From sequence record NC_054909.1: a stretch of 64,000 nucleotides of DNA; one strand, written 5' to 3'. The notes beneath the pieces were generated by a model that worked only from the letters and a program-made list of their open reading frames with translations, ran no database searches and was not told where the DNA came from. Numbering within the stretch: position 1 is the first letter of the stretch; each line of letters starts with the position of its first letter. The translations under genes and the position numbers were made by a program. Below, piece by piece: positions 37,539-38,554 of the stretch. The DNA comes from Escherichia phage EC121.

Positions 37539-37614
37539 TGGTCGAGGCAGTAGGGATCGAACCTACGACCCAGGACTTAGAAGGTCCTTGCTCTTCCTTC
37601 TGAGCTATGCCCCG
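37539..37614 (-). tRNA. tRNA-Arg (anticodon TCT), CCA encoded
   Basis: manual cloverleaf: acceptor CGGGGCA/TGCCTCG, anticodon loop CTTCTAA, T-arm GTAGG-TTCGATC-CCTAC. Confidence 0.75.
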
Positions 37615-37618
37615 TAAT

Positions 37619-37694
37619 TGGGGTGACCGATGGGAGTCGAACCCATGACTACGAGAATCACAATCTCGAGTTCTACCAACTGAACTACGGCCAC
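37619..37694 (-). tRNA. tRNA-His (anticodon GTG), CCA encoded, no encoded G-1
   Basis: acceptor GTGGCCG/CGGTCAC, discriminator C, anticodon stem CGAGA/TCTCG loop TTGTGAT. Confidence 0.65.
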
Positions 37695-37808
37695 ATTAAT
37701 ACCTACTCCAACAATCATGATGTCTTCACACGAAATTAAGAGAAGAGTGATCAGTTCAACCCCTATAATCGCGTCAAGTAGATATTAATGTGACAGTTGT
37801 CACAAATT

Positions 37809-37883
37809 TGGCGGACGTGATAGGATTCGAACCTATAACCAATCGCTTAACAGGCGATCGCTCTGCCATTGAGCTACACATCC
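37809..37883 (-). tRNA. tRNA-Asn (anticodon GTT), CCA encoded
   Basis: acceptor GGATGTG/CACGTCC, anticodon loop CTGTTAA, T-loop TTCGAAT. Confidence 0.7.
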
Positions 37884-37887
37884 AAAT

Positions 37888-37974
37888 TGGTGGGGAGTGA
37901 TGGAGTCGAACCACCCGAGTCGCAATGACAATGAATTTACAGTCCACACCGCTACCTCTACGGGATAACTCCCC
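37888..37974 (-). tRNA. tRNA-Tyr (anticodon GTA), long variable arm, CCA encoded
   Basis: acceptor GGGGAGT/ACTCCCC, anticodon loop CTGTAAA, 87 nt type II. Confidence 0.6.
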
Positions 37975-37981
37975 CTTAATT

Positions 37982-38056
37982 TGGTGGCCCTGGGTGGAAT
38001 TGAACCACCATCTGGCGATTATGAGTCGCTTGCTTGAACCTTCCAGCTACAGGGCC
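37982..38056 (-). tRNA. tRNA with CAT anticodon (Ile-lysidine type or Met), CCA encoded
   Basis: acceptor GGCCCTG/CAGGGCC, anticodon arm CGACTCATAATCGC as in Ile2-type tRNAs. Confidence 0.7.
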
Positions 38057-38057
38057 T

Positions 38058-38133
38058 TGGTGCTGATTGACGGAATCGAACCGCCGACATCCTCATTACA
38101 AGTGAGGTGCTCTACCTACTGAGCTAAATCAGC
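38058..38133 (-). tRNA. tRNA-Thr (anticodon TGT), CCA encoded
   Basis: acceptor GCTGATT/AATCAGC, anticodon stem CCTCA/TGAGG loop CTTGTAA. Confidence 0.75.
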
Positions 38134-38138
38134 AAAAC

Positions 38139-38228
38139 TGGCGGAGGCGATAGGATTTGAACCTATGAGTCGCCGGAGCGACTGCCGGTTTTCAAGACCG
38201 GTGCATTAAACCACTCTGCCACGCCTCC
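38139..38228 (-). tRNA. tRNA-Ser (anticodon TGA), long variable arm, CCA encoded
   Basis: acceptor GGAGGCG/CGCCTCC, anticodon stem CCGGT/ACCGG loop CTTGAAA, 90 nt. Confidence 0.75.
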
Positions 38229-38230
38229 AG

Positions 38231-38304
38231 TCTCCATACAAGGATTTGAACCTACGACATTCTGCTCCCAAAGCAGACGCTCTACCAAACTGAGCTACAC
38301 GGAG
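38231..38304 (-). tRNA. tRNA-Pro (anticodon TGG), no encoded CCA, 2 nt from tRNA-Ser
   Basis: anticodon stem TCTGC/GCAGA loop TTTGGGA; acceptor CTCCGTG/TATGGAG with wobble pairs. Confidence 0.65.
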
Positions 38305-38314
38305 TAAATTAAAT

Positions 38315-38388
38315 TGGAGCGGATAATGAGAATCGAACTCACATCATCAGATTGGAAGTCTGAGGTAATGCCATTATACGATATCCGC
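38315..38388 (-). tRNA. tRNA-Gly (anticodon TCC), CCA encoded
   Basis: acceptor GCGGATA/TATCCGC, anticodon stem TCAGA/TCTGA loop CTTCCAA. Confidence 0.75.
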
Positions 38389-38393
38389 AAATT

Positions 38394-38480
38394 TGGTGCG
38401 AGAAGTGGGACTCGAACCCACAAGGAAATAATTCCGCAGCATTTTAAGTGCTGTGCCTTTACCAATTTGACCATTCTCGC
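38394..38480 (-). tRNA. tRNA-Leu (anticodon TAA), long variable arm, CCA encoded
   Basis: acceptor GCGAGAA/TTCTCGC, anticodon stem CAGCA/TGCTG loop CTTAAAA. Confidence 0.75.
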
Positions 38481-38481
38481 G

Positions 38482-38554
38482 CTGGGAATAAAGGACTCGA
38501 ACCTTTGCATCTAGCAGTCAAAGTGCTATGCCTTACCAACTTGGCTAATTCCCA
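38482..38554 (-). tRNA. tRNA-Gln (anticodon TTG), no encoded CCA, 1 nt from tRNA-Leu
   Basis: acceptor TGGGAAT/ATTCCCA, anticodon stem TAGCA/TGCTA loop CTTTGAC. Confidence 0.7.

Follow-up and report, generated by a model that had tools for sequence, protein, structure and literature searches.

The tRNA gene cluster of Escherichia phage EC121: a segB-less T-even allele with a tRNA-His module

Eleven tRNA genes form a single cluster in a 64,000-nt stretch of the genome of Escherichia phage EC121 (sequence record NC_054909.1), which was analysed as a whole and is called here the window. This cluster is very probably the tRNA operon of a T4-like coliphage (Tequatrovirus), in the segB-less allele of the T2/RB type extended with a tRNA-His module, and very probably plays a dual role, in codon supply and as a store of spare parts for tRNAs destroyed during infection. 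It is an ordinary T-even tRNA cluster, annotated in hundreds of T4-like genomes and with published biology, except for an unusual tRNA-His in which a conserved U stands in place of the G that is essential in bacteria. It has to be regarded as already known, since the same eleven genes occur in many GenBank records, the allele was published in 2008 and the dimeric tRNA precursors of T4 are classical.

A scan of the entire window with ARAGORN returned 11 tRNA genes, all on the minus strand within the outer limits 37539-38554, and none elsewhere. In the order of transcription, they are Gln(UUG), Leu(UAA), Gly(UCC), Pro(UGG), Ser(UGA), Thr(UGU), a tRNA with the anticodon CAU, Tyr(GUA), Asn(GUU), His(GUG) and Arg(UCU) (Table 1). 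These are precisely the genes, order and identities that an earlier note on this DNA, made from the sequence alone, had arrived at by manual folding. With the Rfam tRNA model RF00005 (gathering threshold, 29 bits), 10 of the 11 genes pass with 54-75 bits, and tRNA-Tyr alone stays below 29. The earlier note had made its case depend on the covariance scores of the His, Tyr and Asn candidates: His and Asn pass, while Tyr does not, a shortfall that is overruled by covariation and by experiments with the T6 homologue (see below).

Table 1. Features of the tRNA region in the window, in the direction of transcription (bits, scores with the Rfam model RF00005; MFE, minimum free energy; ORF, open reading frame)
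Feature	Position	Strand	Evidence
tRNA-Gln(UUG)	38481..38554	-	ARAGORN; RF00005 66.0 bits; 73/74 identical to T4
tRNA-Leu(UAA), class II, CCA encoded	38394..38480	-	ARAGORN; RF00005 59.3 bits; 86/87 identical to T4
tRNA-Gly(UCC), CCA encoded	38315..38388	-	ARAGORN; RF00005 63.3 bits; 73/74 identical to T4
tRNA-Pro(UGG), chimeric allele	38230..38304	-	ARAGORN; RF00005 54.1 bits
tRNA-Ser(UGA), class II, CCA encoded	38139..38228	-	ARAGORN; RF00005; 90/90 identical to T2
tRNA-Thr(UGU), CCA encoded	38058..38133	-	ARAGORN; RF00005 75.4 bits; 76/76 identical to T4
CAU tRNA, most likely tRNA-Ile2	37982..38056	-	ARAGORN; RF00005 59.9 bits; 75/75 identical to T2
tRNA-Tyr(GUA), class II	37888..37974	-	ARAGORN; RF00005 <29 bits; 87/87 identical to T2
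tRNA-Asn(GUU)	37809..37883	-	ARAGORN; RF00005 74.1 bits; 75/75 identical to T2
Structured Asn-His spacer	37695..37808	-	MFE -32.7 kcal/mol; covarying closing helix
tRNA-His(GUG), C73, CCA encoded, T at -1	37619..37694	-	ARAGORN; RF00005 65.1 bits
tRNA-Arg(UCU), T2-type isoacceptor	37539..37614	-	ARAGORN; RF00005 63.9 bits; 75/76 identical to T2
116-aa ORF between tRNA-Arg and rnaD	37170..37520	-	phrog_3355, E = 9.5e-55
T4 rnaD (species 2 stable RNA) homologue	37058..37170	-	blastn 78.8% over 118 nt, E = 3.5e-18
T4 rnaC (species 1 stable RNA) homologue	36913..37051	-	blastn 97.8% over 139 nt

The 1.6-kb region containing the cluster is 98.4% identical to that of Escherichia phage vB_EcoM_ESCO58 (Tequatrovirus), which has the same eleven annotated tRNAs, in the same order and between the same flanking genes. 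It matches 1,077 phage records, at least 264 of these with 80% coverage or more. The order Gln-Leu-Gly-Pro-Ser-(Thr)-CAU-Tyr-Asn-...-Arg is shared with the region of the T2L/RB1/RB3 type, which, like Tequatrovirus records such as ESCO58 and G4507, lacks segB as the window does and has a tRNA-Ser with encoded CCA. Between the tRNA genes of the window, we found no gene for a segB-type GIY-YIG endonuclease, the only ORFs of at least 50 amino acids being spurious ones that overlap tRNA genes. The segB-less allele with Tyr and Asn was described for T2L, RB1 and RB3 (Brok-Volchanskaya et al. 2008, PMC2330249); the same work located the preferred SegB cleavage site of T2L within tRNA-Asn and noted that tRNA-Ser of T2L, unlike that of T4, carries CCA. 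The earlier note had stated that T4 carries eight tRNAs, which would make His, Asn and Tyr extras; this is borne out by the T4 annotation and the literature (PMC11143913), which give eight tRNAs with Tyr, Asn and His absent. Such "extras" are routine among T-even phages.

Two members of the cluster called for closer identification. The CAU tRNA is labelled "Met" by ARAGORN, but most likely belongs to the lysidine-dependent, AUA-reading Ile2 type, because its best full-length matches amongst 5,412 E. coli genomes are annotated as tRNA-Ile (81.6% identity). With the anticodon arm included, it is closest to the ileX/ileY-type tRNA of the host, not to an elongator or initiator tRNA-Met. It is identical to the tRNA-Ile of T4 at only 47 of 75 positions. 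Indeed, T2-type and T4-type phages hold different Ile2 genes at one and the same position, and likewise different Arg genes, the tRNA-Arg of the window agreeing with that of T4 in only 50 of 76 positions.

The tRNA-Tyr family, for its part, simply sits on the Rfam threshold: RF00005 gives less than 29 bits in the window and in T2 and 30.3 bits in ESCO58, and the best clan hit of the window gene, tRNA-Sec, reaches 29.9 bits where 47 are required. The cloverleaf drawn by ARAGORN is complete and has an acceptor stem of 7 bp followed by A73 and CCA; its D-stem is weak, its anticodon stem rich in G.U pairs and its variable arm 3 bp long. The gene is identical to that of T2 and differs from that of T6 at one position (86/87), and an alignment of eight phage homologues has compensatory changes in 14 of the 24 pairs, with the cloverleaf kept. 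The T6 tRNA-Tyr has been seen on northern blots and is active in vivo (PMC13096335). Taken together, the ARAGORN structure, the identity with T2 and T6, the covariation and the T6 experiments overrule the low score and support tRNA-Tyr in its stead.

At the 3' ends, nine genes encode the complete CCA, and the other two, Gln and Pro, lack the terminal CA and encode a single C each. The tRNA-Gln gene ends in ...CCCA-G73-C, and tRNA-Leu begins at the next base; the tRNA-Pro gene ends in ...GGAG-A73-C-T, then tRNA-Ser follows, with 1 nt between the two genes. tRNA-Thr and the CAU tRNA are also separated by 1 nt. The Gln-Leu and Pro-Ser junctions, with at most 2 nt after the incomplete 3' end, are those of T4, base for base. 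The sequence thus agrees with the earlier note, which had described Pro and Gln as CCA-less, close to the next tRNA and implying dimeric precursors, and for T4 such dimers are documented: six of its eight tRNAs are made via dimeric precursors, and the Pro-Ser precursor requires the addition of CCA (PMC11143913). By homology with T4, the genes of the cluster would be co-transcribed from the minus strand and the transcript cut by host enzymes, RNase P making the 5' ends. Dimeric intermediates would be expected for Gln-Leu, Pro-Ser and Thr-Ile2, and Gln and Pro would depend on 3' trimming and on the host CCA-adding enzyme. In T4, RNase P, a 3' exonuclease and the CCA-adding enzyme are known to process the dimers; we infer the same for EC121.

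What the cluster is for was approached by comparing the codon usage of 68 long ORFs of the window with that of a 50-kb sample of E. coli coding sequences, comprising only 35 genes. The G+C content of the window is 35%, and codons read by the cluster tRNAs are in excess in its ORFs: AGA 9.7-fold, AUA 5.4-fold, GGA 3.7-fold, ACA 3.3-fold, UCA 3.1-fold, UUA 2.5-fold and CAA 2.1-fold, while Tyr (46 vs. 27 per 1000 residues) and Asn (62 vs. 36) are about 1.7-fold more frequent than in E. coli. The classical codon-supply view fits ten of the eleven genes. As the first of its two roles, the cluster would provide tRNAs for codons whose use in a phage of 35% G+C exceeds that in E. coli 2- to 10-fold. 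There is no such excess of His codons (17.0 per 1000, compared with 21.7 in the E. coli sample).

The second role would be to supply spare tRNAs that replace host tRNAs cut by immune nucleases, as has been documented for related phages. The defence system Septu cuts the variable arm of tRNA-Tyr, and T6 escapes it via amplification of its own tRNA-Tyr; overexpression of T6 tRNA-Tyr rescues infection, and T4, which has no tRNA-Tyr, is unable to escape Septu (PMC13096335). The OLD nuclease prefers Thr(UGU), Gly(UCC) and Pro(UGG), and is inhibited by the Thr(UGU) of T4 (bioRxiv 10.64898/2026.07.10.737580). AriB, the nuclease of PARIS, cuts E. coli Lys(UUU), Thr(UGU) and Asn(GUU) at UAAUC↓N, the arrow marking the cleavage site (PMC12409363), and T4, having its own Thr(UGU), escapes PARIS with only the tRNA-Lys of T5 added. 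On the 3' side of the anticodon stem, where the host motif reads UAAUC↓N, the window has UAAUG↓A in tRNA-Thr and UAAGC↓G in tRNA-Asn. The altered site hints that both tRNAs may be resistant to AriB. More generally, the tRNA set of a phage suggests which tRNA-cleaving defences it can probably tolerate; EC121 carries Tyr, Thr, Asn, Gly and Pro, and no Lys.

The array could also exist purely to compensate for AT-rich codons seldom used by E. coli, with no part in immune evasion. Its anticodons do strongly match the codons enriched in the ORFs of the window, and the T4 tRNAs have classically been seen in this way. We nevertheless hold it to be unlikely, given the lack of His codon enrichment, the published genetics by which T-even tRNA-Tyr and tRNA-Thr counter Septu and OLD (PMC13096335; bioRxiv 10.64898/2026.07.10.737580), and anticodon stems of Thr and Asn that depart from those of the host exactly where AriB cleaves (cf. 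PMC12409363).

The tRNA-Pro gene is a chimera of two alleles. Its anticodon stem and the 5' strand of its T-stem are those of the ESCO58-type allele, and the 3' strand of its T-stem and the acceptor strand are those of the T4/T2-type allele; the junction falls in the T-loop sequence that both share. As a consequence of this combination, the T-stem contains the mismatches G49.G65 and U50.U64, and the RF00005 score of 54.1 bits lies 13-16 bits below those of ESCO58 (69.7) and T4/T2 (66.8). SegB-type endonucleases are known to cut inside tRNA genes (PMC2330249; PMC13096335). In the phage collection, no record is more than 96.5% identical to the chimera over an 86-nt stretch. Either natural recombination, yielding a gene of reduced function, or an artefact of assembly could account for the chimera.

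An encoded G-1 is near-universal in tRNA-His, and the histidyl-tRNA synthetase (HisRS) of E. coli is the textbook case of dependence on this base. The tRNA-His of the window reads as an acceptor stem from G1-C72 through G7-C66, followed by C73 and an encoded CCA, with a T at -1. The earlier note was right that this tRNA has the discriminator C with no encoded G-1: C73 is present and the base at -1 (37695) is T. We considered a shifted register, in which G1 is read as G-1, and rejected it, because the 3' tail would then read CCCA, U7.U66 would be a mismatch and the T-stem would have only 4 bp. The E. coli gene hisR shares with the phage gene the GUG anticodon, C73, a nearly identical 5' strand of the acceptor (GUGGC...) and the same loop sequences; they differ at -1 (g in hisR, T in the phage) and in the D-stem (GCUC/GAGC in hisR, GUUC/GAAC in the phage).

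This gene, including the 16 bases upstream, is found at 95% identity or more in about 200 records of Escherichia and Shigella phages, and homologues occur in Karamvirus, Jiaodavirus, Kanagawavirus, Gualtarvirus, Chrysonvirus, Vequintavirinae and Demerecviridae, including T5. Amongst 13 distinct sequences of the family, 14 of the 21 stem pairs show compensatory change, and G1-C72, U2-A71, G3-C70, C73 and CCA are invariant. Judged by this pattern of substitutions, the phage tRNA-His is evidently selected as a working tRNA.

The T at -1 is found in 23 out of 23 distinct phage His homologues, compared with 134 of 252 (53%) other tRNAs at the same loci. In a blind sample from IMG/VR, cluster-borne tRNA-His genes bear G at -1 in 36 of 48 cases. 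The same blind scan brought up further viral tRNA-His genes without it, several of which have no encoded CCA and some of which share the acceptor GTGACC...GGTCAC; therefore, the state is not confined to enterobacterial phages. In the curated T5 record, tRNA-His is the only one of 22 tRNAs compared that is extended by one 5' base, namely that U. The record also notes that the T5 tRNA-His becomes an effective amber suppressor, and the homologue must therefore be charged in vivo. Full-text searches of the literature on phage tRNA-His lacking G-1 or bearing U-1 returned nothing relevant. The sole G-1-less phage tRNA-His reported is of the 8/4 type with A73, from phages of alpha-proteobacteria (PMC5389517).

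tRNA-His is preceded by a 114-nt spacer with a predicted fold (Table 1), which is closed by a helix of about 13-15 bp (ATTAATATCTACT / AGTAGGTATTAAT) whose 3' strand ends at -1 of the tRNA. Such a leader helix, 13-18 bp long, is present in 26 out of 26 His loci examined, with its 3' strand ending at -1 or a few bases away. In an alignment of 13 distinct homologous helices, 93.8% of the cells are paired, a value biased somewhat toward pairing since the 5' strand was located via complementarity, and 5 pairs have changed in both strands. With a score of 0.349, covariation exceeds that of slid partners (at most 0.114), and none of 500 shuffles reaches this score. We rejected the idea that leader hairpins are a general property of spacers: in MFE folds, tRNA-His (n = 17) is preceded by a leader with, on average, 8.6 of its last 10 bases paired, compared with 2.6 for other tRNAs (n = 30), and for the same inter-tRNA spacers the -1 base itself is paired in 10 of 17 His cases and in none of 30 others. 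For phage tRNA-His genes that do bear G-1, the corresponding mean is 3.5 paired bases. The leader helix is specific to this His family.

The interior of the spacer varies freely across the His loci, down to a 4-nt loop. Homology with the spacer of the window extends over its whole length of about 95 nt in Karamvirus and some Klebsiella phages. Other enterobacterial phage His modules have the same acceptor pairs, C73, CCA, T at -1 and a leader helix at or near -1, and differ in having Gln, Thr or Ser as the upstream neighbour instead of Asn and a spacer interior that is unrelated or reduced to the 4-nt loop. In T5, the element abutting tRNA-His, the ends of which pair likewise, is annotated as stable RNA III (106 nt), and by analogy the spacer of the window probably gives rise to a small stable RNA comparable to species 1 and 2 of T4. 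A consensus scan of the Asn-His spacer yielded no promoter-like site on the minus strand and no terminator (region-wide, the count of promoter-like sites was 7, near the shuffled mean of 4.4), and Rfam in permissive mode over 37000-39200 found no known RNA family in it. The spacer was also considered as a relic of the T4 segB flanks or of rnaC/rnaD, which we rejected, as it has only chance matches of 8-12 nt to the T4 region. Directly after tRNA-Asn lies a short hairpin, GTGACA-AC-TGTCAC (37787-37802, minus strand), which is not conserved in relatives, the 3' half (TGTCAC) alone being common to those in Karamvirus.

Tentatively, these observations can be drawn together as a widespread phage His family (T4-like, T5-like and Vequintavirus-like, in phages of enterobacteria and Aeromonas) with an invariant U-1 in place of G-1 and a covarying leader helix. 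It might follow a distinct route of maturation and identity, either as a U-1-bearing tRNA accepted by the host HisRS or as a deliberately G-1-less tRNA in another role, with the spacer released as a stable small RNA like RNA III of T5. In one specific version, which we regard as possible though doubtful, the tRNA keeps its U-1: guided by the leader helix, RNase P would cut between -2 and -1, and the extra nucleotide, with U-1 replacing G-1, would present HisRS with its 5'-phosphate.

The constancy of T at -1 in the 23 distinct genes speaks for this version, as do a helix that is His-specific and covarying, the U added in the T5 record to tRNA-His only and the end of stable RNA III, placed at -2 in that record. 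Yet U is the commonest -1 base of pre-tRNAs anyway, U-1 is unable to pair with C73, and the T5 annotation may reflect convention instead of RNA data. In the host pre-tRNA-His, it is the G-1:C73 pair that shifts RNase P cleavage, which also weighs against a retained U-1. Moreover, U-1 is itself paired within the helix of most T4-like members, and this pairing is expected to hinder cleavage between -2 and -1, and our literature searches found no paper on the subject. E. coli HisRS relies on G-1, but the main job of this base is to position the 5'-phosphate (PMC9976931), a point in favour of the substitution. The His family lacks G-1 and yet is evidently functional, and its maturation and charging would probe how strictly G-1 is required in vivo; the conserved U-1 and the leader helix are the only part of the cluster possibly worth an experiment.

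It is conceivable that recombination and the traffic of homing endonucleases have carried along some members of the cluster as decaying or non-functional passengers, namely the chimeric tRNA-Pro, the low-scoring tRNA-Tyr and, if E. coli HisRS is unable to charge it, tRNA-His. The two T-stem mismatches of tRNA-Pro and its score below both parental alleles are in line with this, as are tRNA-Tyr under the Rfam cut-off, its T6 counterpart having been reported to be relatively unstable (PMC13096335), the lack of G-1 in tRNA-His and the mosaic content of the cluster. However, both Tyr and His have undergone extensive compensatory change across genera and, hence, are under selection as tRNAs; the acceptor end and C73 of tRNA-His are invariant, and the amber suppression noted for T5 implies that the His homologue is charged in vivo. 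We therefore judge decay to be quite improbable as an account of these genes, the chimeric tRNA-Pro being the only remaining casualty candidate, and a plausible one.

The interpretation of the cluster as a T-even tRNA operon of dual role has some points against it. The host codon sample is small, and for this particular phage we infer transcription and processing only. With its damaged T-stem, tRNA-Pro may work poorly. Septu also cleaves the T6 tRNA-Tyr, whose effect is thus one of dosage, not of resistance (PMC13096335). For tRNA-His, neither rationale, codon demand or spare part, is clearly applicable, because its codons are not enriched and G-1 is lacking.

The cluster extends past position 37539: tRNA-Arg is followed by the 116-aa ORF and then by rnaD- and rnaC-like genes (Table 1). 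This ORF is annotated as hypothetical in ESCO58 and T2, and a Pfam search with it gave no match. The ORFs flanking the cluster match the phage families phrog_2023 and phrog_1411; PHROGs gave function-unknown families only, and Pfam gave nothing. On a larger scale, the region is collinear with T4, with trna.2-4, ipI, 57B/57A and gene 1 on one flank and rnaD/rnaC and e.x on the other.

In T4, the same chromosomal place is taken by Gln-Leu-Gly-Pro-Ser-Thr-Ile-segB-Arg-rnaD-rnaC, with segB at the position where the window has Tyr-Asn-spacer-His. The Ser and Ile genes of T4 have no CCA (TAA stands there in Ser), whereas the window encodes CCA on both, and in the window, unlike in T4, an ORF separates Arg from rnaD. 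The first six genes match between the two, tRNA-Thr being identical. T2 has the order Gln-Leu-Gly-Pro-Ser-[ORF]-CAU-Tyr-Asn-Arg, with an ORF in place of Thr and no spacer and His module: Asn and Arg are 4 nt apart in T2, and it is there that the 114-nt spacer and tRNA-His are inserted in the window. Ser, CAU, Tyr and Asn are identical in the two phages, and Arg nearly so (Table 1). T6 has the order Gln-Leu-Gly-Thr-CAU-Tyr, then segB (annotation; PMC13096335). tRNA-His is absent from T2, T4 and T6 alike, and the content of the cluster is mosaic among these three phages.

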